In this document: positions 1 through 50,086 of the stretch, in pieces
How positions within the stretch are numbered: position 1 is the stretch's first letter
Layout of the letters: each line of letters starts with the position of its first letter
Assembly (NCBI GenBank): GCA_965228735.1
Contig: OZ245838.1
Span: 1,216,001 to 1,280,000 of the forward strand
Source of the DNA: Planctomycetota bacterium
Lineage (GTDB): Bacteria > Planctomycetota > UBA1135 > UBA2386
DNA: 64,000 nucleotides
Direction: 5' to 3'
The notes under the pieces: model-generated
Seen by the model: only the letters and a program-made list of their open reading frames with translations
What the model was told of the DNA's origin: nothing
Database searches by the model: none
Program-made: the position numbers and the translations under genes

Positions 1-1296
1 CGTCGATTCGGCGTCGGCGATGCGCCGAATGCGCATCTCGATCGGCTTGCCTTTCGACCCCTCGATCCGCTCCCGCATGTCGTCCCAGGTCGACACCGAA
101 TCGCCGCCGATCGCTTCGACCAGGTCGCCGGACTGGATCCCGGCCAGCATCGCGGGCCGATCCGGGACGGGGCGGATTCGCATGCTCTCGTCGGCTCCGA
201 GCGCGACGAGATCGGCGAGTTGACCGCGCTGCTCCGGGGTGACGGCGGTAGCGAGCTCGACCTCGACGCCATTCCGTGCCACGCGCATCCGCAGCTCGGG
301 CGGTCCGACCTCGAAGGGTTCGAGGTCACCCGAAAGGAAGGTGGTGCCGTCGACGGCGAGGACGACGTCACCGCGCTCCAGCTTCAGTTGCCGAAGCCAA
401 TCCGAATCGCGCAGGCCAACGACCCGGCGCGGCAAGGATGTGATGCCAACCACGGCGGCCAGCGGGTCGAGCCGCTTCGGATCGCGAATCGTCGCAGTGA
501 CGAGGTCGTCGCCGCGGCGCACTTCCAGCTCGAGCGGTTCGCCGGTGTCCTCCGCCTCCACGACTTTCTCGGCCGCGTCGGTCGATCCATTGGCGCGAAC
601 GAGGACATCGCCGTCCTGGATCCCGGCGCGGGCAGCCGGGCCGCCCGCCTCGACCTTCGTGGCCTCGAAGTCGTGATAGCTCGCACCGACGCCGAGCTCG
701 AAGAGCCCGGATCGGCGATTGAACTGCGGCACGGCCACGACCGTCTGCCGCTCGCCGTCGCGTTCGATCGTGAGCTCGATGGGGCGCTGCCCGTGCAGCG
801 CGACCTCGACGCCGAGGTTCTCGAACGACCGGATCTCGCGGCCGTCGACCTCGAGCACGCGATCGCCGATCTGCAGCTCCGCTTCCCACGCGGCCGAGCC
901 GTGGCCGATGCGCCCGATGATCGGCGCGCTGAAGTCGACGCCGACGCCGAACACGATCGGGAAGATCAGCAGCGCGAGCAGCAGGTTCATGATGACGCCG
1001 CCCGACCAGAACAGCGCGCGCTGGCCGATCGACTTGGCGTAGAGCGACTCCTTGGCCGGATAGCGCCGGTCCGTCGGTTCGGCGCCCGCGACCATGACGT
1101 AGCCGCCGAACGGCACCAGGGACAACCGGAAGTCGGTGCCGCGCCACTGGAACCCGCAGAGCCGCGGCCCGAAGCCGAGTGAGAAGACCTCGACGCGCAC
1201 GCCGGCGAGCCGGGCCGCGATGAAGTGGCCGCCTTCGTGGACGAAGATCAGCAGTCCGATGCCGACGATCGCGATGAGGATGTTCAGGAAGTCCAT
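1..1296 (-). CDS. rseP: RIP/site-2 zinc metalloprotease RseP (partial, runs off the left edge)
   Basis: Read manually from the ATG at 1296: MDFLNILIAIVGIGLLIFVHEGGHFIAARLAGVRVEVFSLGFGP...PFGGYV...GGVIMN. It has the HExxH, FSLGFGP and PxGGYV motifs and lies directly downstream of dxr, the usual context. Confidence 0.93.
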   Translation of the reverse strand, partial: MDFLNILIAIVGIGLLIFVHEGGHFIAARLAGVRVEVFSLGFGPRLCGFQWRGTDFRLSLVPFGGYVMVAGAEPTDRRYPAKESLYAKSIGQRALFWSGGVIMNLLLALLIFPIVFGVGVDFSAPIIGRIGHGSAAWEAELQIGDRVLEVDGREIRSFENLGVEVALHGQRPIELTIERDGERQTVVAVPQFNRRSGLFELGVGASYHDFEATKVEAGGPAARAGIQDGDVLVRANGSTDAAEKVVEAEDTGEPLELEVRRGDDLVTATIRDPKRLDPLAAVVGITSLPRRVVGLRDSDWLRQLKLERGDVVLAVDGTTFLSGDLEPFEVGPPELRMRVARNGVEVELATAVTPEQRGQLADLVALGADESMRIRPVPDRPAMLAGIQSGDLVEAIGGDSVSTWDDMRERIEGSKGKPIEMRIRRIADAEST

Positions 1297-1327: not shown

Positions 1328-2491
1328 TCACCGAGAGGCGGTCTGGGTCAGGCGGGCGGCGGACTGCCGCCCCTCTGCATCGGCATTCTGCACGTCGGAG
1401 AGGGAGGTGATCGGCCGCGGCGCCCGCTCGGCGAGCACGGTGCGGCATATGTCGACGATCGCCGGGAACGGGATCGCGCCGTCGAGGAACGCCTGGGTCG
1501 CGATCTCGTCCGCGGCGTTGAGCCGCGCGCCGGTGTCACCGCCAGCGGCCATGACCTCGTAGGCGAGATCGACGGCCGGGTAGCGTTCGCGATCGCAGGG
1601 TTCGAACGTGAGCGACTGCCAGCGCGCGACGTCGAACGGTTCGAAGTCGAACGGCAACCGCTCGGGATAGGACAGGCAGTAGAGGATCGGCACGCGCATG
1701 TCGGGCACGCCGCACTGCGCCATGATCGAGCCGTCGACGAACTCGACCATGCTGTGGACGATGCTCTGGGGGTGGAGCACGACCTCGATCTGCTCGGCGG
1801 GCAGGCCGAACAGCCAATGCGCTTCGAGCACCTCGAACGCCTTGTTCATCATCGTCGCGCTGCCGATCGTGATGCGCGGGCCCATCTTCCACGTCGGATG
1901 GGCGAGCGCTTCCTCGCGCGTGACCTGATCGAACGTGCCGAGATCACGCGTCCGCAGCGGCCCGCCCGAACCGGTGAGGAGCACGCGCCGGACGGCCTTG
2001 CGGTCTTCCCCGTTGAGGCACTGGAAGACGGCGCAGTGCTCGCTGTCGACGGGCAGGATCGTGGCGCCGTTCTGCTGCGCGAGCGGCATCAGGTAGTCGC
2101 CCGCGACGACGAGCGACTCCTTGTTGGCGAGCGCGAGCGTGCGGCCCGTCCGCAACGTCCACTCCGACGCCGCGAGGCCGGCGGCACCCATGATGCCGTT
2201 GAGCACGGTGTCGGGCTGCGTGCGTTCGAGGGCGTCGAGCACGCCGGCGCTGCCCGCGAACCACTCGGTCCCGGCCGGCAGGTCGGGGCGGTCGTCCACG
2301 CCCGTGAGACACACGGCATCGGCGCCGTGCGTGGCGGCCTGCGCCGCGATCCCGGCGGCGCTGCGGTGGGCGGCAAGCAGCACGACGTCGAACCGGTCGC
2401 CATTCTGCGCGAGAATCTCGAGCGCCTGCGTCCCCACGGAACCCGTGGAGCCGAGAACCGCGATGCGACGTTTGCCCACGGGATCGATCAT
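1328..2491 (-). CDS. dxr: 1-deoxy-D-xylulose-5-phosphate reductoisomerase
   Basis: LGSTGSVG, LALANKESLV, PVDSEH, HPTWKMG, SATMMNK and HPQSIVHSMVEFVDGS motifs. It has NAADE in place of the usual NAANE. Confidence 0.97.
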   Translation of the reverse strand: MIDPVGKRRIAVLGSTGSVGTQALEILAQNGDRFDVVLLAAHRSAAGIAAQAATHGADAVCLTGVDDRPDLPAGTEWFAGSAGVLDALERTQPDTVLNGIMGAAGLAASEWTLRTGRTLALANKESLVVAGDYLMPLAQQNGATILPVDSEHCAVFQCLNGEDRKAVRRVLLTGSGGPLRTRDLGTFDQVTREEALAHPTWKMGPRITIGSATMMNKAFEVLEAHWLFGLPAEQIEVVLHPQSIVHSMVEFVDGSIMAQCGVPDMRVPILYCLSYPERLPFDFEPFDVARWQSLTFEPCDRERYPAVDLAYEVMAAGGDTGARLNAADEIATQAFLDGAIPFPAIVDICRTVLAERAPRPITSLSDVQNADAEGRQSAARLTQTASR

Positions 2492-2574
2492 GGGCCGGCC
2501 CGACCGATTTGCAACCGACCCGGACGGGTTCCTCGGTTGCCGCGGCGGCGCCAGGGCCCGATGATGGTTCGGAC

Positions 2575-3648
2575 ATGAGCGATGCCCCTTCGGCCTATCG
2601 ACGCGCTGGCGTCGACATCGACAAGAAGTATGCGGCGGTGACGGGCGCGGGCGACGCGATCCGGTCGACGTTCACCAAGGGCGTGCGCGGCGACGTCGGC
2701 GCGTTCGGCGGCGTGTTCGATCTCGCGGCCGTCGGCGCCGAGGGGCAGCTGCTCGTCGCGTCGACGGACGGTGTCGGCACCAAGGTCATGGTCGCGCAGA
2801 TGCGCGCGCGTGCTGCGGGCGAGGGAGCGGACGCGCAGGCCCTCGTCGGCTCGGTCGGCGAGGACCTCGTGAACCATTGCGTGAACGACATCCTCGTGCA
2901 GGGTGCGCGCCCGCTGTTCTTCCTCGACTACATCGCGATGTCCCAGATGCGGCCCGCGGAGGTCACGGCGATCATCGCCGGTCTCGCGAAGGCCTGCCGC
3001 GAGAACGACTGCGCGCTGCTCGGCGGCGAGACCGCGGAGATGCCCGGCGTCTACCGTGACGGCGAGGTCGACATCGCGGGCACGATCATCGGCGCCGTGC
3101 CGCGCGACCGCGTGCTCGACGGCAGCGCGATCGCCGTGGGGGACCGGCTCATCGGCCTCGAGAGCTCGGGCCTGCACACCAACGGCTATTCCCTGGCGCG
3201 CCAGGTGCTGTTCGCCGATTCGGGCTTCACCGTGAGCGACACGCCGGACGAGCTCTCGGGCCAGACCGTCGGCGACGCGCTGCTCGCTGTGCACCGCAGC
3301 TACCTGCGGCAGTGCCTGCCGCTGTGCGAACAGGGCCTGCTACGCGGGCTCGCCCACATCACGGGCGGCGGGCTGCCGGACAACCTGCCGCGCGTGCTGC
3401 CGGCCGGCACCGCGGCCAGGATCGATACGAGCGCGATCCCGCGGTCGCCGATCTGCGACCTCATCGTCGAGCGCGGTGGCGTGGCGCGCGAGGAGTCGTA
3501 CCGCGTGCTCAACATGGGCGTCGGCATGGTGCTCGTCGTTGCGAGTGAGAACGTCGACGCCGTGACGAAGTCGCTGGTCGATGCCGGTGAGGAGCCGTTC
3601 GCCCTTGGCGAGATCGTCGCCGGCGACAAGAAGGTGGAGCTCGCATGA
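2575..3648 (+). CDS. purM: Phosphoribosylformylglycinamidine cyclo-ligase (AIR synthetase)
   Basis: YRRAGVDID, STDGVGTK, PLFFLDY, GGETAEMPG, SSGLHTNGYSL, HITGGG and NMGVGM motifs. Start taken at ATG 2575. Confidence 0.97.
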   Translation: MSDAPSAYRRAGVDIDKKYAAVTGAGDAIRSTFTKGVRGDVGAFGGVFDLAAVGAEGQLLVASTDGVGTKVMVAQMRARAAGEGADAQALVGSVGEDLVNHCVNDILVQGARPLFFLDYIAMSQMRPAEVTAIIAGLAKACRENDCALLGGETAEMPGVYRDGEVDIAGTIIGAVPRDRVLDGSAIAVGDRLIGLESSGLHTNGYSLARQVLFADSGFTVSDTPDELSGQTVGDALLAVHRSYLRQCLPLCEQGLLRGLAHITGGGLPDNLPRVLPAGTAARIDTSAIPRSPICDLIVERGGVAREESYRVLNMGVGMVLVVASENVDAVTKSLVDAGEEPFALGEIVAGDKKVELA

Positions 3649-38115: not shown

Positions 38116-38646
38116 TCAGCTGCGGCGATAGCCGAGCTCGCGCACGACCATCAGCACCTCGCTCCAGCTCGGGAACGGACGGCCGTGCTTCTGCTTGAAG
38201 TCGTCGATCGCCGCGATGAACTCGAGCACATCGGCGTCGACCTCGGCGAGTGCCGGCGCGCTGCGGTCGGTCGTCGGCGCCTTCTTGCCGTTGGTCTTCG
38301 GGCCGCCGCTCTTGGGGCTGGCAGCGGCCTTGCCGGCCTTGCGCGGGCCGGCGGGCTTCTTCGCGGGCGCCTTCGGCGGCGACGACTTCCGCGCGGTCGC
38401 CTTGCCGTTCCGGCTCGCCGGCTTGCTCGCGGACTTCTTCGCGACGGTCTTCTTGGCGGGCGACTTCCTGGCCGCCGCCTTCTTCGGGGCCGCCTTCGAG
38501 CCGGCCTTGCGGGTCGACTTCTTCGCGGCCTTCACGGGCGTCTTCGGGCGGGCACTGCGCGAGCGCAGACTGGTCGACTTCTTGGTCTTCGCCGCGCGGG
38601 CGGATCTCGACCTCGTCTTGGACTTGGACGTCGTGGCGCTGGCCAT
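38116..38646 (-). CDS. Lys/Ala/Ser/Pro-rich histone-H1-like protein with a small conserved C-terminal domain
   Basis: [15 protein letters not shown]...[18 protein letters not shown]...; C-terminal [42 protein letters not shown]. Confidence 0.8.
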
Positions 38647-38653
38647 GCCGGCC

Positions 38654-39700
38654 CTATCGGCCGTTCTCGAACATTCCCTTGATCGCGGGGCCGAAGGGCG
38701 GGCGCAGCACCCCGACATCGGTCACGAGCGCGGCGATGAGCGCGGCGGGCGTGCGGTCGAACGCGGGGTTCCTGGCCCCGATCCCGGGCGGCGCGATGGG
38801 GCGGTTCCCGATGCCCGTGACCTCGATGGCATCGCGCTCTTCGATCGGGATCACCGCGCCGTCCGGCAGCGCGAGATCGAACGTCGAACGTGGCGCCGCG
38901 ACGTAGAACGGGACCTCGTGCGCGTTCGCCGCGAGGGCCAGCCCGTAGGTGCCGACCTTGTTGGCGACGTCGCCGTTGGCGGCAATCCGATCGGCCCCGG
39001 TGATCACCATCTGGACCTCGCCCCGACCGATCAGACCCGCCGCCGCGCTGTCGCAGATCACCTCGACGGGGATGCCCGCGCGGTGCAGTTCGAGCGCCGT
39101 GAGGCGGGCGCCCTGCAGCAGCGGGCGCGTCTCGTCCGCCAGCACCGTGAAGCGCTTGCCAGCGCGCCAGGCGGCGTAGAGCACCGCGAGCGCCGTGCCG
39201 TCGCCGGCCGTCGCGAGGCGACCCGCGTTGCAGTGCGTGAGGACCGTGCCGCCGTCGGGCACGAGTTCGCTCCCGAACCGACCCATCGCGTCGCAGGCGT
39301 CGCGGTCCTCCTGATGGATCGCGCGCGCCTCGTCGAGCAGCGCGTCGAGGGTCGGCTCGGTCGCCGCGCGCGCGGCACAGCGATCGAGTGCCCAGCGCAG
39401 ATTGACGGCCGTCGGGCGCGCCAGCGCGAGCCGTTCGACCTGCTCCGCGAGCCCGGCCGTGAATGCAACGCCGCTGGCGAGTCGCTCGCGGACCGCGAGC
39501 ACGAGGCCGTAGGCCGCCGCGACGCCGATCGCGGGCGCGCCGCGCACCGCGAGCCGCTGGATGGCGTCGATCACGGCCGTGCTCGCGGTGAGCTCGAGCA
39601 CCTCGACCGTGGCCGGCAACAGCGTCTGATCGAGCAGCCACAGCGCCCCCGTCGCGGAGTCGCCGCGCCACTGCACGGTCTCGGGCAAGCTCCCCGTCAT
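38654..39700 (-). CDS. mtnA: S-methyl-5-thioribose-1-phosphate isomerase
   Basis: [62 protein letters not shown] and NPAFD motifs. Confidence 0.96.
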
Positions 39701-39730: not shown

Positions 39731-40609
39731 TCATCGGGTCAGCCGGGCCTGGATCTCGGCGTAGGTCGCGGCGGTCTGCTCGACGATCGCGGCCGGCAGC
39801 TCGGGCGGTGGGGGCGTCTTGTCCCAGTCGGTCGACTGCAGCCAGTTGCGCAGCAGCTGCTTGTCGTAGGACGTCGGTTTGCCGCCGGGCACGACCTCGT
39901 CGGCGGGCCAGAAGCGGCTCGAGTCCGGCGTCAGGCACTCGTCGATGAGCACGAGCTCGCCGTCCGCGAGGCCGAACTCGAACTTGGTGTCGGCGATCAC
40001 GATGCCGCGCTCGCGCGCGAACTCGCGGCCCTTGCGGTAGAGCTCGAGCGCCTTTTGCCGCGCCAGCTCGGCGATCTCGGCCCCGACGAGCTCGACGACG
40101 CGCTCGAACGCGATCGGCTCGTCGTGGCCGCTCTCGGCCTTGGTCGACGGCGTCAGGATCGGCGGGTCGAGCTCGCTCGCGTGCTGCAGCCCCGCCGGCA
40201 GGGTGATCCCGCTGACCGCGCCGTCCCGCTGGTAGTCGGTCCAGCCGGAGCCCGTGAGGTAGCCGCGCACGACCCACTCGACGGGCAACGGCTCGCATTT
40301 GCGGCAGCGCATCGTCCGCCCGCGCAGCGCGTCCTTGAACTCCGCGGGCACGTCGTCCCAGTCGTCGACGTCGGTCGAGAGCATGTGGTTGGGCACGACG
40401 TCACGCAGCTTGTCGAACCAGAACCGCGACGTCTGGGTCAGCACCTCGCCCTTGCCGGGGATGCCCTGGTTCATGACGACGTCGAACGCCGAGACGCGGT
40501 CGCTCGTCACGAGCAGCAGGTCGCCGCCGAGTTCGAACACCTCCCGCACCTTGCCGCGCCCGAGCCGCGTCGCGAAGGGCAGGTCGACGGACATCACGCT
40601 CGCTTGCAC
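39731..40609 (-). CDS. purC: SAICAR synthase
   Basis: GKVRE, SDRVSAFDVV, EWVVRGYLTGSG, TPSTKA, DTKFEFG, DECLTPDSSRFW and DKQ motifs. Start is GTG 40609 (CATAAT 6 nt upstream) or ATG 40594. Confidence 0.97.
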   Translation of the reverse strand: MQASVMSVDLPFATRLGRGKVREVFELGGDLLLVTSDRVSAFDVVMNQGIPGKGEVLTQTSRFWFDKLRDVVPNHMLSTDVDDWDDVPAEFKDALRGRTMRCRKCEPLPVEWVVRGYLTGSGWTDYQRDGAVSGITLPAGLQHASELDPPILTPSTKAESGHDEPIAFERVVELVGAEIAELARQKALELYRKGREFARERGIVIADTKFEFGLADGELVLIDECLTPDSSRFWPADEVVPGGKPTSYDKQLLRNWLQSTDWDKTPPPPELPAAIVEQTAATYAEIQARLTR

Positions 40610-40669: not shown

Positions 40670-41932
40670 GTGCAAAAGCGCATCATCCCGAACCCCGCCG
40701 GCGTGCCGGCCGATCTCGCCAAGCCGAAGCTCCCGGGCAGCAAGAGCCACGCCCAGCGCGCGATGCTGCTTGCGTCGTGCCTGCCGGGAACGTGCAAGTT
40801 CTCGGGCGTGCCGGTCAGCGACGATCTCGCGATCCTGCTGCGGGCGCTCGCGGCCCGCGGCGTGCGCGTGCTCGGCGAGGGCAAGGGTCAATGGACCGTG
40901 CACGGCGCGGCCCCGTCGGCGGGCAAGGCGATCCGCATCGACGCGGGCGAGAACGCGACCGTCGCACGCATGACGCTGTCGATGCTGCCGCTGCTCGGCT
41001 GCTCGGTGACGATCGACGGCCATCCGCGCCTGCGGCGCCGCCCGATGGGGGCGGTCACGGCGATGCTGCGGGACGCCGGGGTCTCGTGCGATCAGGACAC
41101 GCTGCCGATCCACGCCGACGGCCGCGGCTTCAAGGCGCCCGAGATCGTGCGCGTCGACGCCTCGTCGACGACGCAGCCTGCAAGCGGCGCGATGCTCGCC
41201 GTCGCGCTCGGCGGGGGCGGCCACGTCGAGATCGCCCGCCCGGGCGCGACCGGCTACCTCGACCTCACGGCGCAGATCCTGCGCTCGTTCGGCGCGCGCG
41301 TCGAACGCGAAGAACACCCGTGGGGGCTGCAGTTCGAGCTCTCGCCGCCGGCCGGGGGCGACCGCCAGTTCGCCGTGCCGCCCGACCCGTCGGCCCGCGC
41401 GTTCGTCGCTGTGCTCGCGGCGCTGCACGGCACGGCATTGCCGGCCGGCCTCGAGCACCGCGCGGACGACGCCCACCCCGACTGGGCCATCGACGGCGAC
41501 ATCGCGACGATGACGAGCGCCGGGCCCGAGGACGAGGTCCTGCTCGAAGGCATGGAAGCCAGGCCCGACAGCGTGCCCGCGCTCGCGATCCTCGCGTCGC
41601 GTCGGCCCGGCGCCACGGTGTTCCGCGGCGTCGCCAATCTGCGGACCAAGGAGAGCGACCGGCTCGCGGCGCTCGCGCGCGGCCTCGGCACGCTCGGCGT
41701 CGAGACCCAGGTGCGCGCCGATGAACTGATCGTGCGCGGCCCGCTGCCGATGGACGGCGCGATGGTGCAGGTGCCGACCGTGGCCGACCACCGCATCGTC
41801 ATGGCGCTGGCGCTGCTCGGAACGATCCTGCCGGGCGGCATCGAGGTCGAGAACCCCGAGGCCGTGGCCAAGAGCTGGCCGGCCTACTGGGACTGGCTCG
41901 GCCAGTGCGCCACGGTCACGACGGTCGAGTAG
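40670..41932 (+). CDS. aroA: 3-phosphoshikimate 1-carboxyvinyltransferase (EPSP synthase), divergent
   Basis: LPGSKSHAQR, LRRRPM, NLRTKESDRL, DHRIVMA and VAKSWP motifs. Confidence 0.9.
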   Translation: MQKRIIPNPAGVPADLAKPKLPGSKSHAQRAMLLASCLPGTCKFSGVPVSDDLAILLRALAARGVRVLGEGKGQWTVHGAAPSAGKAIRIDAGENATVARMTLSMLPLLGCSVTIDGHPRLRRRPMGAVTAMLRDAGVSCDQDTLPIHADGRGFKAPEIVRVDASSTTQPASGAMLAVALGGGGHVEIARPGATGYLDLTAQILRSFGARVEREEHPWGLQFELSPPAGGDRQFAVPPDPSARAFVAVLAALHGTALPAGLEHRADDAHPDWAIDGDIATMTSAGPEDEVLLEGMEARPDSVPALAILASRRPGATVFRGVANLRTKESDRLAALARGLGTLGVETQVRADELIVRGPLPMDGAMVQVPTVADHRIVMALALLGTILPGGIEVENPEAVAKSWPAYWDWLGQCATVTTVE

Positions 41933-43391
41933 GGGAAGAGTCGAAGAGCCATTCCTCGATACTGGTGAGATCGCTCTCGTCACTGACGACGAACAGCACG
42001 TCGCCGGCTTCGATCACGGTCGATCCGCGGGCGGCCAACGGTTCGCCAACCCGCAGGATCAGGACGACGGCGACCGACTCCGGCAGCCGGAGTTCTCGAA
42101 GCGCGGTGCCGCACGCCTTGGACGCGGGATCGACCGTGAACTCGTGGATCGATCGACCGGCGCGTTCCGCAAGCTGCAGCTCGAGTGTGCCGGAGCGCGC
42201 ACCGACACGGCGGCCGAGCCGGGACCGCAGCGCCGCGAACCGAATCGTCGCCCCCGGCACGATCGCGCTCACGACAACGACGAAGAAGACGATGTGAAAG
42301 ATGCGGTCGGCTCCTGGTAGCCCCTTCATCACCGGAAACGTTGCCAGGACGATGGGTACCGCTCCCCGCAAGCCGGTCCAGCTCACTAGCGCGATCTCGC
42401 GGGCCGGCCAACGGAACCAGCCGAGGCAGACGAACGTCGCGACGGGGCGGGCCACGAGCCCGAGCACGAGGCCGATCCCGATGCCGACCGCTGCTTCGGG
42501 CAGCAGACGGGACGGAAACACCAGCAGCCCGAGCATCAGGAACATCAACACCTGCGAGAGCCAGGCGATCGAGTCGTGCACGCGGCGCAGCCCATCCGCG
42601 AACGGCAGATGTCCGTTACCGAGCACGACCGCAGTCAGGAAGACCGCCAGGAACCCACTGCCGTAGACCAGGGTGCTGGCGCCGAACGCCGCGAGAGCAG
42701 CTGCGACGATCAACACCGGGTACATTCCCGTGGCGGTCAGTCGCACCGTGTTGATGAGGAATCGAAACAGGTAGCCGCATCCGAGACCGACGCCGGTGCC
42801 GATCACCAGCTGAAGGGGGATCTCGACGAACAGCCCGAGATCGAACGACCCGACGGCCAGTGCATCCGCCGCGGACAGCGTGAGGATCACGGCCATCGGA
42901 TCGTTCGCACAGGACTCGACCTCGATGGTGGACTGCAACTTGTCGTCGAGTCGGATGCCACTGCCGCGAAGAACACCGAAGACAGCAGCCGCATCCGTCG
43001 ACGAAACGATCGCGCCCACGAGAAGCGCGTCTCCCCACGGCAACCCGAAGAGCCGCGCGCCAACGGCGACGATCAACGCCGTCGCGGCAACCCCAACGGT
43101 CGCCAGCATGCCGGCCGGCGCCGCCGCAGAACGGACCGCAGACCAGCGCGTGTTCAGCCCGCCATCCAGGAGGATGAGGACGAGGGCGACGGTTCCGGCC
43201 CGGAACGCCAGATCGGACTTGTCGAACTCCAGGCCGCCGAGCCCCTCGGATCCCCCGAGCATTCCGACCACGAGGAACAGGAGCGGCGACGGCAGGCCCA
43301 CCCGATCGAGCCCGCGAGTTGCCAGGACACAGATCGTCAGGAGCACGCCGAACAACGCGATCATCGCGGCGGTCGACGACGGTTCGCTCAT
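41916..43391 (-). CDS. Potassium/proton antiporter (CvrA/NhaP2-like, CPA1) with C-terminal RCK_C/TrkA-C domain
   Basis: GMLGGSEGLGG, SSTDAAAVF, ESCANDPMA, GSGFLAVF and GLRGAVPIVLATFP motifs; C-terminal ELRLP...GSTVIEAGDVL. Confidence 0.92.
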   Translation of the reverse strand: MSEPSSTAAMIALFGVLLTICVLATRGLDRVGLPSPLLFLVVGMLGGSEGLGGLEFDKSDLAFRAGTVALVLILLDGGLNTRWSAVRSAAAPAGMLATVGVAATALIVAVGARLFGLPWGDALLVGAIVSSTDAAAVFGVLRGSGIRLDDKLQSTIEVESCANDPMAVILTLSAADALAVGSFDLGLFVEIPLQLVIGTGVGLGCGYLFRFLINTVRLTATGMYPVLIVAAALAAFGASTLVYGSGFLAVFLTAVVLGNGHLPFADGLRRVHDSIAWLSQVLMFLMLGLLVFPSRLLPEAAVGIGIGLVLGLVARPVATFVCLGWFRWPAREIALVSWTGLRGAVPIVLATFPVMKGLPGADRIFHIVFFVVVVSAIVPGATIRFAALRSRLGRRVGARSGTLELQLAERAGRSIHEFTVDPASKACGTALRELRLPESVAVVLILRVGEPLAARGSTVIEAGDVLFVVSDESDLTSIEEWLFDSSPTRPS

Positions 43392-43473
43392 TGCGATGCG
43401 ATCCAGCCCTCTCCTGGCGTCATCGGGAACGTGGCGGCCCCTGAAGATTCGAGCCGCGACACGGAATGCGGAA

Positions 43474-44709
43474 TCACACGTCCTTCTGGCGCACGCCGAC
43501 GACGAAGTTCAGCTCGATCTGCCCGTTGCTGCGCGACTCCTCGAAGTCGTCGACGATCATGATCGTCTTGTACTCACGGTCGATCGCGCCGGTCCAGACC
43601 TCGTTGGTGCCGGAGATCGTGATCGTCAGCTTGCCGTCGGGCAGGACGTTGTAGGTGCCCTGGTAGGTGAAGTCGATGCCGCCGCTGCCGGTCGCATCGA
43701 GGCGGAATGCGCCGGGCGACGCCCCCGAGGACGTGCCGAGCGTGAGCAGGCCGACGAACGAGTCCGAGCCCGGATTGGTCGGATCGACGAACGTCGTGTA
43801 GCCGCCGATGTAGAACGTGCCGTCGACCTCGTCCGGGTCGGCTGGCAGGCTCGGCGTGCTCGTGATGTCGAACTTGCGGATCATCATCGCGAGCCCGGCC
43901 TCGCCGTCGCCTTCCTCCTCGTCGAGCGCGAGCACGATGTCCGGGCTCGCCGCGCCGAGGAACGTGCGCGAATCGGTCGGCTGGTTGAGCAGCGTGTAGT
44001 CGAGGGTCAGGTTGCACGAGCCGTCGAACGTGCCCGACTGCTCGATGGCCTGGATCGTGCCGCCGAAGTCGAGCGTGCTCGTGCCCTGTTGGCCGTCCCC
44101 GTCGATCGCGCCCTGCGCGCCGCCCGCGCCGCCCGTGACGGTCAGCGAACCGAACGCCGCGCGCGCGACGCTCGTCGGCGACGACAACGTGCGATCGAAC
44201 ATCACGTGGATCGACCCGAGGTGCCACCCGTCGAGGTCGAAGTTCGGCGTGCCGCCGAACACGCGCGTGCCGACGAACAGCCCGATCGACGGCGAGTTGG
44301 TCGTCGTCACCCGGTCGGTGAAGAACACGTCGGCGATGCCCGGCGTCGCCCCCGTCAGCGTGTAGCCGCCGAGGAAGACGACCGACGGATCGCGCCCGAC
44401 ACCCGGCACGAGCACCGTGAGCTCGCCGGCCTCGGTCAGCGCGTAGGAGCCGTCGCCCTCGCCGCCCGTCGCCTGCGTGATGCGGTACGAGCTGTCGTCC
44501 GACATCGTGAACGTGCCGCGCGTGCTCACGACGTTGGCAGGGTCGATCGGCACCTCGACGAAGCCGGCGAGCGACCGCAGGCCGAACAGGTGGTGGGTCG
44601 CGGTGATCTGGACCTCGCTCTGCGGCGTGTCGTCGGAGCCGCCGCGCGCGCAGCCGAACGAGAGACCGACGAGCGGTAGTGCCGCGACCGAGAGCAGGAG
44701 TCTGTGCAT
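43474..44709 (-). CDS. Beta-rich lipoprotein with about three internal repeats
   Basis: MHRLLLSVAALPLVGLSFG-C lipobox; repeated GTFT/GSLT/GLLT...G.Y....G.LT units. Confidence 0.75.
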   Translation of the reverse strand: MHRLLLSVAALPLVGLSFGCARGGSDDTPQSEVQITATHHLFGLRSLAGFVEVPIDPANVVSTRGTFTMSDDSSYRITQATGGEGDGSYALTEAGELTVLVPGVGRDPSVVFLGGYTLTGATPGIADVFFTDRVTTTNSPSIGLFVGTRVFGGTPNFDLDGWHLGSIHVMFDRTLSSPTSVARAAFGSLTVTGGAGGAQGAIDGDGQQGTSTLDFGGTIQAIEQSGTFDGSCNLTLDYTLLNQPTDSRTFLGAASPDIVLALDEEEGDGEAGLAMMIRKFDITSTPSLPADPDEVDGTFYIGGYTTFVDPTNPGSDSFVGLLTLGTSSGASPGAFRLDATGSGGIDFTYQGTYNVLPDGKLTITISGTNEVWTGAIDREYKTIMIVDDFEESRSNGQIELNFVVGVRQKDV

Positions 44710-44893
44710 GCTGGGGGAGTTCAAGGCGAAGGAGTCTAACAGTCGCGATAGCCGCGCGCCGCATACTGGCAACCGCCGATGCCACCGGCGGACCGCAACC
44801 GGAACGCAGCCCGGCGATCCGCGCATTCGCGCGCGCAACGGGCATTCGACCCGGACTTGCAATCGCGGCAAGGACTCGGCGTAGTGTCCGGCC

Positions 44894-45937
44894 ATGGCGC
44901 GAGCGGTCGGACGGTTGGGCAGGACAGCGCGCGCGGCAGTCCTCGGCGCCGGTGCGGTGGTCGGCGTCATGGCCTGTACGATCGCCGGCTGCGTGAGCCA
45001 GCCGCGCTACTCGGGGCCGATGCCGGTGCGCAACCAACACCCGGCGCAGCTGACCGTCATGCACATGCCGCCCGCGAGCACGCAGACCCTGCCCGCGGGC
45101 CGCTTGACGACGCGCTTCGACGCGGCCTACTCGAGCCTGTTCCTCAGCGGCATCGGCCTCGCGCGCTCGTTCGCCATGGACGGCGAGTATCTGCGCTTCG
45201 GACCGACGCTGCGCACCGGCCTCGGCGGCGGCTTCGAACTCGGCGTCGAACTGCCGTTCGCGCACACGACTGGCGGGTTCCTCGACTCGTTCCTGATCCA
45301 GTATCACGACGTGTTCGCGCTGCCCGACCAGGACCGCGAGAGCGTCACGAACGACAACTTCCAGGTGACCGCCGTGCGCGACGGCAGCACGGTCTGGCAG
45401 GTCGAGAAGAGCGGCATCGAGCTGCTCGACGTGCCGATCTGGCTGACCTACGAGCTGCTCGAGCCCGAGAGCGGTCTCGGCCTCGCCGTGCGGACGGGCC
45501 TCGAGCTGCCGACCGGGGACGAAGAGACCGGCTATGGCAGCGGCGAGATCGACTGGTCGGTCGGCGTCCTGCTGGAACGTCACTTCGAGTCCGTGGCGCT
45601 CTACGGCCAGGCCCAGCACACGTTCGCCGGCACGCCGTCGATCGCGCGCCGCGGCGGCCTCGAGTTCCAGGACGTCACGAGCATCGCCCTCGGGATCGAG
45701 ATGCCGCTGCTGGAGAACCTGCACGCCTTCACGCAGGTCGAGTTCGAGACGTCGACGCTGCGCGACCTCGGCCTGCGCACGACCGAGCGGGAACAGGTCC
45801 TGATCTGGGCCGGCGGCCGTTACGGCTTCGGCGCCGAGCAGCGCTGCGCCATCGAGTTCGGCATCGGCGAGGACCTGCGCGGCTACGCCAGCCCGGACGT
45901 CACGGTGTGGCTCGGCTTCCGGGCCATGGGGCTCTGA
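44894..45937 (+). CDS. DUF3187-like outer-membrane beta-barrel protein
   Basis: PMPVRNQHP, GGFLDSFLIQYHDVFALP, ELPTGD...GSG and EDL...SPDVT motifs, with an amphipathic C-terminal strand (VWLGFR). Confidence 0.75.
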   Translation: MARAVGRLGRTARAAVLGAGAVVGVMACTIAGCVSQPRYSGPMPVRNQHPAQLTVMHMPPASTQTLPAGRLTTRFDAAYSSLFLSGIGLARSFAMDGEYLRFGPTLRTGLGGGFELGVELPFAHTTGGFLDSFLIQYHDVFALPDQDRESVTNDNFQVTAVRDGSTVWQVEKSGIELLDVPIWLTYELLEPESGLGLAVRTGLELPTGDEETGYGSGEIDWSVGVLLERHFESVALYGQAQHTFAGTPSIARRGGLEFQDVTSIALGIEMPLLENLHAFTQVEFETSTLRDLGLRTTEREQVLIWAGGRYGFGAEQRCAIEFGIGEDLRGYASPDVTVWLGFRAMGL

Positions 45938-45982
45938 GGCGCGCAACTCCGGCGTTCGCGGCCGCTGTGGCTCCCCCGTCGT

Positions 45983-46010
45983 GTTTTACATAACATATCT
46001 TATCGGAACC
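45983..46010 (-). other. dif: dif-like XerC/XerD recombination site
   Basis: The minus strand reads GGTTCCGATAA-GATATG-TTATGTAAAAC, compared with E. coli dif GGTGCGCATAA-TGTATA-TTATGTTAAAT. It has the 11-6-11 layout and is an AT-rich intergenic patch between convergent genes. Confidence 0.85.
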
Positions 46011-46142
46011 CGCGTCGGTCGAGCGCCGCAGCTCCGACAGACCCCGAAACGACCCCAGGATCGTTCCGCAAGAGTATGACCGACAGTCGGTTGCGGATGC
46101 TTTGCGAGCATCCACACGCAAGGCATCAGTCAGGAGCGCAGT

Positions 46143-48227
46143 TCACACGCTGGCGCCGGCCTTGCCAGCGAGCCTCTCCGCCTGGTCCGTGAGCGCGACC
46201 TGCAGGCTCGTGAAGCCCGCGTACGACACGGTGCGGGCCGAGATCCCGGCCTCGCGTGCGAGCTCGAGCGCCGGCTCGGTCGTCTCGTGCCGGTTCCAGT
46301 GCAGCAGGAGCAGCAGGTCGACCCCGTTCTTCAGCCGGTCCGCGATCGCCGAGACCGTCTTCTGCGGTGACGTGTAGTTCGTCTCGAGCCATTCGGCCTC
46401 GAAGTGCCAATCGTCGGCCAGCTTGGCGAGCCGGCCGTGGTGCCGGCGCTGGCGTTCGTTGCCGCCCACGACGAGAACCTTGGCCGGGCGGCCGAGCGCG
46501 GCCTCGAGGCTGGCCATGGCGCCAGCTCCGCCGGCCGCGGTCGTCGGGCTCGTGCCGCCGAGATCGAGCAGCTTCTCGAGCGCCGCGAGGTCGTCGCTGG
46601 CGAGTTCGGGGTTGGTGCACGCGACCTCCTCGAGCAGACCGTGCGCCTGGCGCAGCGACTCCTCGTCCTTGCGCGCCCGCAGCGACCGCGCGATGGCGAC
46701 CATGAGCTGCGCGCGTTCGTAGTCGCGACCTTCCATCTCCTCGAGCACGGCGACGAGCTCGACCTTGATCTCCTGGTGATCGAGCGCCTGCCCGATGAAC
46801 TCCTCGGTGTGCAGCAGGTTCTCGAGCACGTCGAACTTGCCGCGCTGCATCAGCAGCTCGCGGATCTCGCCGAAGCACGAACGGGCGGCGTCGCGGTTGC
46901 CGCGCATGTTGTGCGCCGTCATCACGACGCGCAGCGCCTCGAGGCGCTGGTCGAGATCGATCGCGACCTCGAGCACGCGTTCGGCGGCCAGCAGCGCCGC
47001 GTCGGCTTCGCCGAGGCCCTGGTATTCGAGCGCCACGAACAGCAGCTGGTCGGGTGACGTGCCGCGTCCCACATCGACGGCGTCGAGGAAGCGCAGCGCG
47101 AGCTTGCGGTCGTGCTTCTTGAGCTCCTCGTGCACCGAGTAGAACGTCTCGAGATCCGGCTTGACGGTCTCGAGCGCCTGCTCCATGAGTTTGAGCGCGC
47201 GGGTCGTCTCGGTCGCGTCGCCGAGCGCGAGCAGCGCTGCGGCCGCGAAGAAGCGCGCGCGGTGGCGCAACACGACGTCGCGGCCCTCGAGCCGGCGCAA
47301 CCCGCCGAGCGCGCGCTCGAAGCCCTTGGCGGCGACCGTGAGGTCTCCGCTCTCGTACGCGAGCAGCGCGCGCAGGTAGAGCGCTTCGGGCACCGCGAGG
47401 TCGGGATCGTCGGCGACGTGCTGCAGGCGTTCGAGAACGGCATCACGTTCGGCCCGCTCCTGGTGCGGCTCGACGGTCTCGACGTCGTGCTCCCGCATCG
47501 CGGCGAGCGCAGCCGTGACGTTCGCGGCGCTCGTGATCGCCGACGGTTCACCCGCGAGCTCGATCGCCTTCTCCGCGGTCTCGATCGCCATGTCCCACTC
47601 GCTCGCGGCGAGCAGGCGCTCGGCCAAGGCGCGGTGATAGCGTGCCTGCACGTCGTCCGGGAGCCGGTCGAACGACGCGAGCCCGAGGATGCGCCCGAGG
47701 ATGGACGCGGTGCTCTCCTGGTCGTCCGTGTCGACGCGGGTCTCGAGGCGCGTCAGCAGGTCCGTCACCGCGGCATCGACGATCGTCTGCAGCTGCGGGC
47801 TGCTCTCCGCCGCGAGGAACTGGATCGCGCGCACCGCGGCCTTGACGTCCCCCGACCAGAACAGCGACCGAACGACGAGCGGCAGCACGTTCCCGGCGAC
47901 GCTCGCGTCGGTCAGCAGATCGAGCAGCGTTTGCGGATTCTTGACGATCTCGGCGATCTCCTCGCGATGGCCCTTGCGGTCACACGCGCGCAGTTGACCG
48001 TAGAGCGCCCACCGCCGGGTCTCGTCGTCGCTCTCGGGTTGCGGCAACTCGATCTCGAGCAGCCGCGTCGCATACCCACCGAGGAACGCCGCGCCGGCGG
48101 TCGCGCCGGCGAGCGCGACGTAGTCGGCGAGTTGCTGCGTCACGGCGTCGACCTTCTGCTCGCCCTTCTCGGCGGCATGGATCTGTTGCAGAAGCAAACG
48201 AACGAGCGGGGTTTCCCAGACCATCAT
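46143..48227 (-). CDS. TPR-like helical protein with a C-terminal DUF2325-like alpha/beta domain
   Basis: Long helical repeats; C-terminal KVLVVGG...DLLLLLHWNRH...ELAREAGI segment. Confidence 0.7.
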   Translation of the reverse strand: MMVWETPLVRLLLQQIHAAEKGEQKVDAVTQQLADYVALAGATAGAAFLGGYATRLLEIELPQPESDDETRRWALYGQLRACDRKGHREEIAEIVKNPQTLLDLLTDASVAGNVLPLVVRSLFWSGDVKAAVRAIQFLAAESSPQLQTIVDAAVTDLLTRLETRVDTDDQESTASILGRILGLASFDRLPDDVQARYHRALAERLLAASEWDMAIETAEKAIELAGEPSAITSAANVTAALAAMREHDVETVEPHQERAERDAVLERLQHVADDPDLAVPEALYLRALLAYESGDLTVAAKGFERALGGLRRLEGRDVVLRHRARFFAAAALLALGDATETTRALKLMEQALETVKPDLETFYSVHEELKKHDRKLALRFLDAVDVGRGTSPDQLLFVALEYQGLGEADAALLAAERVLEVAIDLDQRLEALRVVMTAHNMRGNRDAARSCFGEIRELLMQRGKFDVLENLLHTEEFIGQALDHQEIKVELVAVLEEMEGRDYERAQLMVAIARSLRARKDEESLRQAHGLLEEVACTNPELASDDLAALEKLLDLGGTSPTTAAGGAGAMASLEAALGRPAKVLVVGGNERQRRHHGRLAKLADDWHFEAEWLETNYTSPQKTVSAIADRLKNGVDLLLLLHWNRHETTEPALELAREAGISARTVSYAGFTSLQVALTDQAERLAGKAGASV

Positions 48228-48370
48228 TGGAGCAGACCTCCACAGTTGGATCCGTAGCGGCGAGATCCGCTACACCCCGGAGCTATCGGCTGCCGCTGTG
48301 GGTTCTTCCCAACCGGACCGCGTGGCCGCGGTGCCATCGGCCGAATGAACGCCGCGCTGGCGCGCGGCCC

Positions 48371-50086
48371 CTACCCGAGCAGCGCGCGGGCGTCGGCCGG
48401 CAGCACGACGACCGGCCCGGCGAACCGAGGTCCGTCGGCGAGCGCGCCGAGCAGGAGGTCGCCGACGCAGAGCTGCGCGAGCACGTCGCCGTCGACCTCG
48501 AGCCAGTGGCCGTCGCCCTCGTCCGTGCGCATGCCGAACCCGTCGCCGAGGATCTCCTCGATCTCGAACATCGCCGGGCGCGAACCCGCGGCCTCGGGCG
48601 TGGAGAGCTTGCGGCCGGCGGTGGTGAGGCGGTCGAGCTGATCGAGCAGCGCCCCGCGGCAACCCGTGAGCTGGTCCTCGACGTCGAGCTCCTGGGTCGT
48701 CTTCACCCACGCGTAGAACTGCTCGAACGCCGCATAGGCCGCGCGCACCGCCCCGCTCCGTTCGGCGGGCGGCGCGCCGAGGAATACGTGCAGCAGAACG
48801 CGCATGAGGTCCTCGCCCGTCACGAGGTCGAGGTCGACGCGCGGAACTGCGGCGTTGCCCTGCAGCTCGACCCAGGTGCGCAGTGTCTGCTGCACCACCT
48901 CGTCGGGCTCGGTCTCCCACAGGAACTCCTCGACGAGCGGCGTGAGATCGCCCCCACCCGGCCGCGCCGCCGATTCGTCGCCGTCGGCGGCCGGTCCGTC
49001 GAACGGGTTGCTGCCGTCGTCGGCGCTGCCGGGTTCGAGGCCCGCCATCTCCTCGAGCTCCGCGAACACGCCGTCGAGGTCACGCGAACTGCGCAGGCCG
49101 TCGTCGAGGTGACGCACCATGCGCTCCCCCAGCGTCTCGCCGGGCGGTCCCTCGGATCGCTCCGCCCGGCCCGCATCACCGGCCGGGCCATCGGGCCGCT
49201 GCACCTCGGGGTGGTGCGAATTCCAGATCTCGAGCAGGACGCGCCGCACCGCGTCGAGGTCGGCCTCGGTCTCGAACGCGACCTCGTCGAGCAACGGCCC
49301 CATCACGACACCCGGACGTTCGGTCCGCGCGAGCCGTTCGCTGATCTCGGTCGCCGACCACTGGCGATCGTCGCCCGCGGTCCGGTAGTTCTGCAGCAGC
49401 CCGTCGAGGCGCGCCTCGAGCCGCTCGAGCGGCTCGCCCACGGGCGCTGGCTTCGCGGTGCCGGTGGCAGTCGCTCGCGCCGCCGATCGCGCTGTCGATT
49501 CCCGCTCGGCCCGGTCGCGTTCTCGCTGCGCCTGCTCCTGCGGACGCAGCAGCACGTGTTCGAGCTCGACCTGCTGCAGCCGCCGATCGAGTTCGAGCCG
49601 CTGGACGTCGTGCGCGAACGCCTCGCCGAGCGAGCCACCGGGCCGGAAGATCGACGCGACCGTCGACGGCAACCAACGGCCCGTGCCGACCACGTAGAGC
49701 CGCCCCACCACGAGATCCCCCACCGCGAGCGACCCGGTCGGCACGACGAGGTCGAGCATCTGGTCGTCCTGCAGGTCCTTGGCCGTGGCGCAGTCGGTCG
49801 CCACACCGACGACCGCGAACGCGCCCACGAGCGAGCCCGCCACGGACTCGTCGGCATCGAGGCGAGTCACATCGGCGGGGACGTCACCGAGCACTTCGCT
49901 CTGCCGCTCGAGGACGAACCACTCGAGGAACCGCCGTTCGGCCGCCGCGTGCGCCGCCACGGCACCCTCGCCGTGGAACTCGCGCCGGGCGCGTTGCAAC
50001 TCGGCCTCGATGTGGGGCTCCGCGAGCACGCGCTCGACCAGCGCCGTCAGCGCCGCGTCGATGGCTTGCTGCTCGTTGTCGTCCAT
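48371..50086 (-). CDS. Acidic multidomain hypothetical protein
   Basis: Strong coding bias from ATG 50086 (MDDNEQQAID). A duplicated L.VGDL..G.L motif occurs near both ends. Confidence 0.7.
   Translation of the reverse strand: MDDNEQQAIDAALTALVERVLAEPHIEAELQRARREFHGEGAVAAHAAAERRFLEWFVLERQSEVLGDVPADVTRLDADESVAGSLVGAFAVVGVATDCATAKDLQDDQMLDLVVPTGSLAVGDLVVGRLYVVGTGRWLPSTVASIFRPGGSLGEAFAHDVQRLELDRRLQQVELEHVLLRPQEQAQRERDRAERESTARSAARATATGTAKPAPVGEPLERLEARLDGLLQNYRTAGDDRQWSATEISERLARTERPGVVMGPLLDEVAFETEADLDAVRRVLLEIWNSHHPEVQRPDGPAGDAGRAERSEGPPGETLGERMVRHLDDGLRSSRDLDGVFAELEEMAGLEPGSADDGSNPFDGPAADGDESAARPGGGDLTPLVEEFLWETEPDEVVQQTLRTWVELQGNAAVPRVDLDLVTGEDLMRVLLHVFLGAPPAERSGAVRAAYAAFEQFYAWVKTTQELDVEDQLTGCRGALLDQLDRLTTAGRKLSTPEAAGSRPAMFEIEEILGDGFGMRTDEGDGHWLEVDGDVLAQLCVGDLLLGALADGPRFAGPVVVLPADARALLG

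Follow-up and report, generated by a model that had tools for sequence, protein, structure and literature searches.

The described system closest to the locus examined here is that of E. coli, in which dif is acted upon by XerC, XerD and an FtsK guided by KOPS, and the model of FtsK loading and XerD activation that we use is taken from excerpts of PMC5357621 and PMC2800217. Carried over to the present organism, this model would have FtsK load on guide words, pump dif to the division site, stop at XerCD and there activate XerD. As described in part of PMC5357621, the E. coli system has in common with ours an 11+6+11 layout, one copy located at the terminus, a pair of Xer paralogs, an FtsK gamma domain and a polar G-rich octamer converging on dif. 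The SRS/SpoIIIE of B. subtilis and the KOPS of L. lactis, as presented in portions of PMC3384302, are comparable in that a lineage-specific word conforms to the same skew and frequency criteria, and SRS skew is stated there to shift at the polar localization region instead of the origin. Sites of the same sequence family and position as ours were predicted in 16 phyla by Kono et al. (2011, PMC3025954); in the accessible text of that survey the prediction failed for the lone planctomycete (0/1), and flanks are not described. In Planctopirus limnophila, according to a section of PMC12283558, ftsK is the only member of the classical division cluster that is essential.

The probable dif site and its chromosomal setting

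Read on the minus strand, positions 45983-46010 of the window (the whole stretch of DNA analysed, 64 kb) are GGTTCCGATAA-GATATG-TTATGTAAAAC, the same letters that the initial annotation had given for a dif site (Table 1); on the genome these are positions 1,261,983-1,262,010 of a single contig of 7,193,928 bases (7.19 Mb). Two 11-base arms stand in partial dyad symmetry about 6 bases, 20 of the 28 positions are identical to E. coli dif (NC_000913.3), and the site lies, as had been remarked at the outset, in the 28-base patch with the highest AT content of the window (19-20 of 28 A/T). The annotation had seen no second copy and had named many copies, or a better match elsewhere, as grounds for abandoning the assignment. 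Among all 28-mers of the genome none other came within nine mismatches, and a profile built from the sites of 71 relatives, with our own left out, gave this site 53.6 bits and the next-best genome position 6.2, so that dif is present once in this chromosome.

Table 1. Features at and around the candidate dif site (window coordinates)
Feature	Position	Strand	Remarks
XerC-type arm GGTTCCGATAA	46000..46010	-	8/11 identical to E. coli left arm; TTCYGATAA in 32/32 discovery sites
Central region GATATG, 6 bases	45994..45999	-	Differs between family members; arms fixed
XerD-type arm TTATGTAAAAC	45983..45993	-	9/11 identical to E. coli right arm; TTATGTAAA once in genome
Conserved flank GACGGGGGAG	45971..45980	-	Family consensus GGCGGGGGAG; G-run at +6..+10 past the XerD arm, directed away from dif
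DUF3187 gene, converging on XerD side	44894..45937	+	Start codon as called
694-aa gene, converging on XerC side	46143..48227	-	Weak TPR-like hit
Two short palindromes past the stop of the 694-aa gene	46079..46113	.	Judged outside the dif system
Last GGTGGGGG left of dif, pointing to dif	39807..39814	+	Genome 1,255,807 (+)
First GGTGGGGG right of dif, pointing to dif	48951..48958	-	Genome 1,264,958 (-)

The two convergent genes between which the annotation had placed the site do flank it, and a homolog of the 694-aa gene adjoins dif in 16 of 31 relatives' loci, on the XerC side in 15 of these. The two hairpins that had also been pointed out are present, at 46079-46091 (with a 1-base loop) and 46095-46113, but inverted repeats of these sizes occurred in 342 and 189 of 1500 random 130-base windows, frequencies which place the pair within chance, and no conservation was seen at that distance in the relatives' dif loci; we therefore reject them as parts of dif. 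Approximately 7 kb from dif, at window positions 38116-38718 (minus strand), there is a 200-aa open reading frame that is rich in lysine and alanine and resembles histone H1.

That the 28-mer is instead the site of a mobile element, or is AT-rich by chance, is hardly credible. Two relatives do carry other dif-like palindromes, one of which, when read, adjoined its own tyrosine recombinase gene; the 28-mer, however, is single copy, sits at the flip in word polarity described below and is conserved together with its adjoining genes across the family. No pair of dif-like att sites flanking foreign DNA, as expected of an IMEX, was found, there being no second or nearby half-site in the genome, and no element is integrated at dif, in agreement with the annotation: the nearest integrase (genome 1.281 Mb) adjoins a tRNA-Leu outside the window. 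This tRNA-Leu and the integrase gene after it occupy 1,280,354-1,281,740, to the right of the window and 19 kb from dif. As to the palindromes of the relatives, they are of another type, ATCACATAA-6-TTATGTGAT, and occur in four copies with a shared flank in one genome (G035), with a related site once in a second (G001); one copy lies about 50 bases ahead of a gene for a 325-aa tyrosine-recombinase-like protein, and is probably that element's own site.

The proteins required to act upon such a site are encoded, which removes a further objection anticipated by the annotation, namely a lack of Xer recombinases, and bears out its expectation of xerC-, xerD- and ftsK-like genes. There are 24 tyrosine-recombinase matches in the genome, and of the four scanned against XerC and XerD models, one (L001) was the best XerD-like (recomb_XerD) and another (L003) the best XerC-like (recomb_XerC). 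Both fall under the XerC/XerD equivalog cut-offs (297 vs 330 and 312 vs 335 bits), exceed the general subfamily cut-off of PRK00283, by which they class as xerC/xerD orthologs, and carry the catalytic motifs; the XerD-like protein matches E. coli XerD at 1e-53. A single FtsK motor protein was found, complete with 4TM, alpha, motor and gamma domains, whose gamma helix reads GYTRATR here vs GYNRAAR in E. coli. Tubulin/FtsZ was matched in none of 41 family genomes vs 13 of 14 in the control set, and the four closest named relatives of the XerD-like protein (58-75% identity) are labelled Planctomycetota; the host is a planctomycete with an ftsK-like gene and no FtsZ detected, the case that the annotation had singled out as of extra interest. 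A second FtsK-gamma domain closes a motorless protein with a hydrophobic N-terminus, an acidic linker and an altered recognition helix (genome 2,882,586-2,884,268; positions 1471-3036, minus strand, of locus L297), whose gene directly follows ftsK in four of five genomes checked. A point of nomenclature may be added here, in that the excerpt of PMC12283558 describes the P. limnophila FtsK as being without PF17854, which it names gamma; in Pfam, PF17854 is the alpha and PF09397 the gamma domain.

With respect to the position of dif on the replicon, the cumulative G-C minimum lies at 4,570,542, adjoining dnaA, and the maximum is a plateau that terminates at dif. GC skew amounts to +0.029 at 1.02-1.14 Mb, drops to 0.0003 between 1.14 Mb and dif, and past dif is -0.028. 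The annotation's proposal that the window spans the replication terminus is thus sustained, GC skew and polar words both flipping at dif; its prediction of a switch in cumulative skew near 46 kb holds insofar as the turn adjoins dif, but must be amended in that dif stands at the edge of a flat plateau of about 120 kb. Since skew on the XerD side is flat over this distance (0.0003 +- 0.0034), the forks probably do not meet at dif itself, but within an adjoining zone, about 120 kb wide, of which dif forms the end. The replication arms measure 3.89 and 3.31 Mb, dif lies 289 kb from the antipode of oriC, and in two near-closed relatives dif is 47-52% of the contig away from dnaA. Because the dnaA-dnaN gap is enriched in DnaA-like boxes (13 exact matches vs 0.9 expected; dnaN was placed in 21 of 30 family loci), it is likely oriC. 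The layout of this origin is conserved in the family (genome 4,569,627-4,570,362 here) and consists of CTTTTGAC, degenerate boxes TTNTCC[AC]C[AG], a block CACACTCGYGAC and a GAGA/TCTC tract; domain IV of the family DnaA carries SLE(D/E) and DHTTV(L/I)Y. At 868,498-869,352 a further DnaA-like protein is encoded, which is divergent and matches DnaA_C, and most of 61 family genomes likewise have a second match.

A first dif pattern matched in 31 of 36 family genomes, and from these 31 sites and our own a refined pattern was made that matched 82 of 91, once in 81 of them, with two hits for a reversed-pattern control; the refined pattern was found in 50 of the 59 genomes outside its construction and in 30 of 31 high-quality family genomes. 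As relatives share ancestry, none of these counts are independent. Scanned across the phylum, the pattern matched 188 of 301 genomes (only 3 of 15 in family f10 of the same order), a total that means little, as the control was equally high in AT-rich genomes. Outside the family we took 77 of the 301 genomes that had few matches, and read 50 loci, 30 from the search output and 20 picked by hand (two of the latter from the phylum-wide scan). A loose test for a ACGTCCGATAA-like left arm, which is only partly contained in the search pattern, was passed by 43 of 49 usable loci and by 24 of 29 among those from the search output, a few of the passes being doubtful. In three genomes of Pirellulaceae type, to which named loci had led, no convincing dif was seen (best 10.1 bits vs 29.8-48.5 for the family), and their dif has presumably diverged or been missed by the search; identity of the XerD-like protein to Pirellulaceae-type proteins is about 42-49%. 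Loss of the FtsK gamma domain does not account for the missing matches, the domain (PF09397) being present in 297 of 301 genomes of the phylum. A dif consensus can now be given for a phylum in which the standard survey failed.

Single copy, skew turn, word polarity and the complement of xerC-, xerD- and ftsK-like genes all agree with the annotation's assignment, and the 28-mer is very likely the dif of this chromosome, the place at which XerC and XerD would separate dimeric chromosomes. By comparison with E. coli, it is very probable that XerC/D would bind it, that dimers would be resolved there and that FtsK would activate the process. The site itself is ordinary, and the whole is likely a canonical XerCD/FtsK dimer resolution system with a lineage-specific KOPS.

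A candidate guide word for FtsK

In the portion of PMC3384302 at hand, a KOPS is required to be at least 90% leading, to occur at least once in every 40 kb of the 7% region surrounding dif and to be over-represented; we applied its skew and frequency criteria without its P-value ranking. Only six octamer families passed, all based on G-runs and headed by GGTGGGGG and GGNGGGGG. The former divides 228:11 in favour of the leading strand genome-wide and 14:0 near dif (observed/expected 2.39 under an order-2 Markov model); the latter divides 731:114 genome-wide and 52:3 in the 503 kb around dif (observed/expected 1.45 under the same model), and by these measures is a candidate KOPS, with an excess of only about 1.1 over its own 7-mers. 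Polarity reverses between 1,255,807 and 1,264,958 for GGTGGGGG and between 1,257,320 and 1,264,957 for GTGGGGG, the latter a 7.6-kb interval (window 41,320-48,957) that includes dif, and the oriented-octamer switch that the annotation had forecast near 46 kb is thereby located. In ten relatives, within 40 kb on either side of dif, GTGGGGG points toward dif 80:8 and the E. coli KOPS 35:28. The E. coli KOPS, B. subtilis SRS and L. lactis KOPS were rejected as guide words here, being only 65%, 60% and 51% leading, as was GATGGGGG, which is polar (151:11), yet whose flip is not pinned to dif.

The polarity of GGTGGGGG is independent of gene strand, as assigned by our own crude gene model (87:5 in lagging-strand genes, 83:2 in leading-strand genes and 58:4 in intergenic DNA). 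It fades toward the origin, where GC skew is still about 0.03, and does so partly because the second flip sits at parB and not at oriC: this flip maps to 4,519,920-4,521,180, at parA-parB and some 50 kb from oriC. In the parB-oriC interval of five genomes, 13 of 14 copies of GGTGGGGG and 26 of 32 of GTGGGGG point away from parB, GC skew mostly follows oriC, and the wider family GGNGGGGG is weak (19:11), with genome G035 neutral. A parS-like palindrome lies within parB in three of the five genomes; in ours it is TGTTTCACGTGGAACA, at 4,521,665 and at the polar-word flip, and the same palindrome recurs in G013 and G022. We take this palindrome as a putative parS. With parS as the break, GGTGGGGG divides 231:8. 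A flip at parB is more readily ascribed to selection for segregation than to replication bias or Chi, and Chi or plain mutation bias is accordingly disfavoured as the cause of the polarity. By analogy with E. coli, the FtsK gamma domain probably reads the polar word GGTGGGGG/GGNGGGGG, and copies pointing from parS to dif would steer the FtsK pump to dif.

The conserved G-rich flank beyond the XerD arm

Past the XerD arm, the family conserves a G-rich flank that contains a guide-like word in reversed orientation at a fixed distance, for which we found no published description; the annotation had not noted this flank, which lies 6-12 bases past the arm. GGGGG occupies exactly +6..+10 in 15 of 32 discovery genomes (32 sites from 30 genera) and in 25 of 40 hold-out genomes (40 of 50 new sites); among genera new to the analysis, it holds this offset in 18 of 24 genomes and 7 of 10 genera. 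In the discovery set, GGNGGGGG stands at +3 in 10 of 32 flanks, and the exact word occurs in 12 of 32 (shuffle mean 2.6, maximum 8 in 2000). Within 25 bases of the XerD arm, matches with one mismatch allowed point away from dif in 22 discovery cases and toward it in none, against a background of 0.019 per window; in the hold-out set they point away in 36 of 40 and toward dif in 1 of 40, with 2 in 320 control windows. Mean pairwise identity of the discovery flanks is 0.50 at +3..+12 vs 0.30 at +15..+60. In the pooled 72 genomes GGGGGAG is found in 37 and GGCGGGGGAG in 18, and the run at fixed offset is absent in 32. The XerC side likewise has an outward run, though a weaker one (22 of 72 have GGG at +8..+10), and our own genome lacks it. 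Other planctomycete families display a tendency only (runs of five: 15 away, 1 toward, in 43 loci). One relative carries, at +18..+28 on the XerD side, an extra inverted copy, GCTTTACATAA, that resembles the XerD arm.

The flank falls in the zone which, in the part of PMC2673442 available, is found to be crucial for FtsK activation in E. coli, where intact DNA is needed at nucleotides 2-9 past the XerD arm. It is possible to postulate that a reversed guide word beside the XerD arm would dock or brake FtsK, holding the incoming hexamer in the 2-9-base zone that the E. coli protein needs, or damping recombination. As XerD occupies the upstream side of the flank, the motor could not load there, and the flank would be confined to one of these two effects. 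A contact of the flank with the gamma domain is the weakest step of our proposal, and we advance it tentatively, at rather less than an even chance. Several points count against docking: in E. coli, it made no difference which bases stood further than 5 positions from dif (same portion of PMC2673442); one reversed KOPS gave no significant effect (in an excerpt of PMC3384302); and the gamma domain uses one surface for KOPS DNA and XerD, never both at a time (in an excerpt of PMC5052618). An FtsK hexamer has six gamma domains, however, of which some might grip the reversed word with another in contact with XerD. Of the word family, too, the flank favours a member of lower polarity, which again counts against docking: flanks mostly use GGCGGGGG (84% leading) and not the most polar GGTGGGGG, our own GACGGGGG is only 71% leading, and across the genome the word becomes hardly more polar with the conserved AG of +11/+12.

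An alternative, which we regard as unlikely, is that the flank is the operator of another protein, a lineage-specific accessory box in the role that DnaA-like boxes apparently have in Gemmatimonadaceae, its likeness to the polar word being incidental. Its core, GGGGGAG, keeps a base-exact offset in 37 of 72 genomes, including an AG that the polar word does not need, and an unrelated family keeps a different motif at nearly the same place. In 32 dif sites of genomes reached through Gemmatimonadota-labelled loci there is no such G-run, and one or two DnaA-box-like TGTGGANAA stand past the XerD arm; this motif is not that family's polar word, with no copies in about 400 kb of its arms. Yet G is also frequent at +3 and +4 of the flank (in 48 and 54 of 72), in keeping with GGNGGGGG, the weaker outward run recurs at +8..+10 on the XerC side (22 of 72), and no candidate protein was found. 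It is scarcely believable that the flank is simply a GC-drifted DnaA box. Its GGA is roughly in register with the first Gemmatimonadaceae DnaA-like box and the family's oriC boxes include TTNTCCCCR, but the TT at the head of those oriC boxes is kept (13 observed, 0.9 expected), and there is no enrichment of CTCCCCC among them; a box profile recognized 1 of 32 family flanks vs 32 of 32 control flanks, so that we reject a reading of this G-rich flank as a DnaA box like those of the lineage's oriC. The oriC-box profile scored in 2 of 43 other planctomycete flanks.

Reading of the flank by XerD itself, or a structural preference of the synapse for a stiff G-tract, would require no third protein, and we consider it quite improbable. 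The flank is fixed relative to the XerD arm and co-occurs with a spacer starting in G (36 of 51 vs 4 of 21), and the structure of DNA in this zone is shown to matter in part of PMC2673442. However, the spacer link may reflect kinship alone, the flank is unlinked to XerD-arm sequence (20 of 33 vs 20 of 39), and E. coli XerCD binds without flank DNA according to the same excerpt. Less probable still is an action in RNA, as C-rich tails or terminator stems of two convergent transcripts. Genes do usually converge on dif, and in some genomes a C-rich left flank could base-pair over dif with a G-rich right one; the offset, however, is tied to dif, whereas distances to the neighbouring genes vary widely, and our own genome has no partner run, folding giving its G/C run no stable hairpin.

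Returning to the docking or braking of FtsK, we lean, on balance, toward the reading as a whole, in which dif is served by guide words running from parS and is bordered by a reversed flank that would dock or brake FtsK, much of it by analogy with E. coli. The flank word here and the DnaA-like boxes of Gemmatimonadaceae at the same position could point to an overlooked, lineage-specific control slot of chromosomal dif sites past the XerD arm. With somewhat more doubt than conviction, dif might then be described as a three-part site, comprising a XerC arm, a XerD arm and a reversed guide word that parks or brakes a pump guided by words running from the centromere, parS, and not from the origin, the third part lying in a lineage-specific control slot of 10-25 bases past the XerD arm.

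Comparison with described systems

What is new here is a record and consensus of dif in planctomycetes, together with a guide word that is probably specific to the lineage and a flank, conserved but of putative role. The open-access papers that our searches listed described, in the title or the first lines of the abstract, no planctomycete dif, no use of this word as KOPS and no conserved reversed word beside XerD; the sections of PMC7901474, PMC10591338 and PMC5993296 at hand held nothing on planctomycete dif. A reversed guide word adjoining dif, if true, would be at odds with the prevailing opinion that the vicinity of dif is kept clear of such copies.

Like plasmid cer with ArgR/PepA, as outlined in a portion of PMC5357621, our locus combines a core site with conserved adjoining DNA, but the addition here is about 10 bases at a chromosomal dif and not the approximately 180 bases of cer, and no accessory protein is known for it. 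Relative to E. coli, there is no G-run in the 30 bases past that organism's XerD arm, its KOPS, GGGNAGGG, is only 65% leading here, and the host belongs to a planctomycete family without detected FtsZ. The word differs from SRS and the L. lactis KOPS in being GGTGGGGG/GGNGGGGG, here a candidate, and while SRS shifts at the polar localization region, the shift here maps to parB, with its parS-like palindrome, 39-65 kb from oriC.
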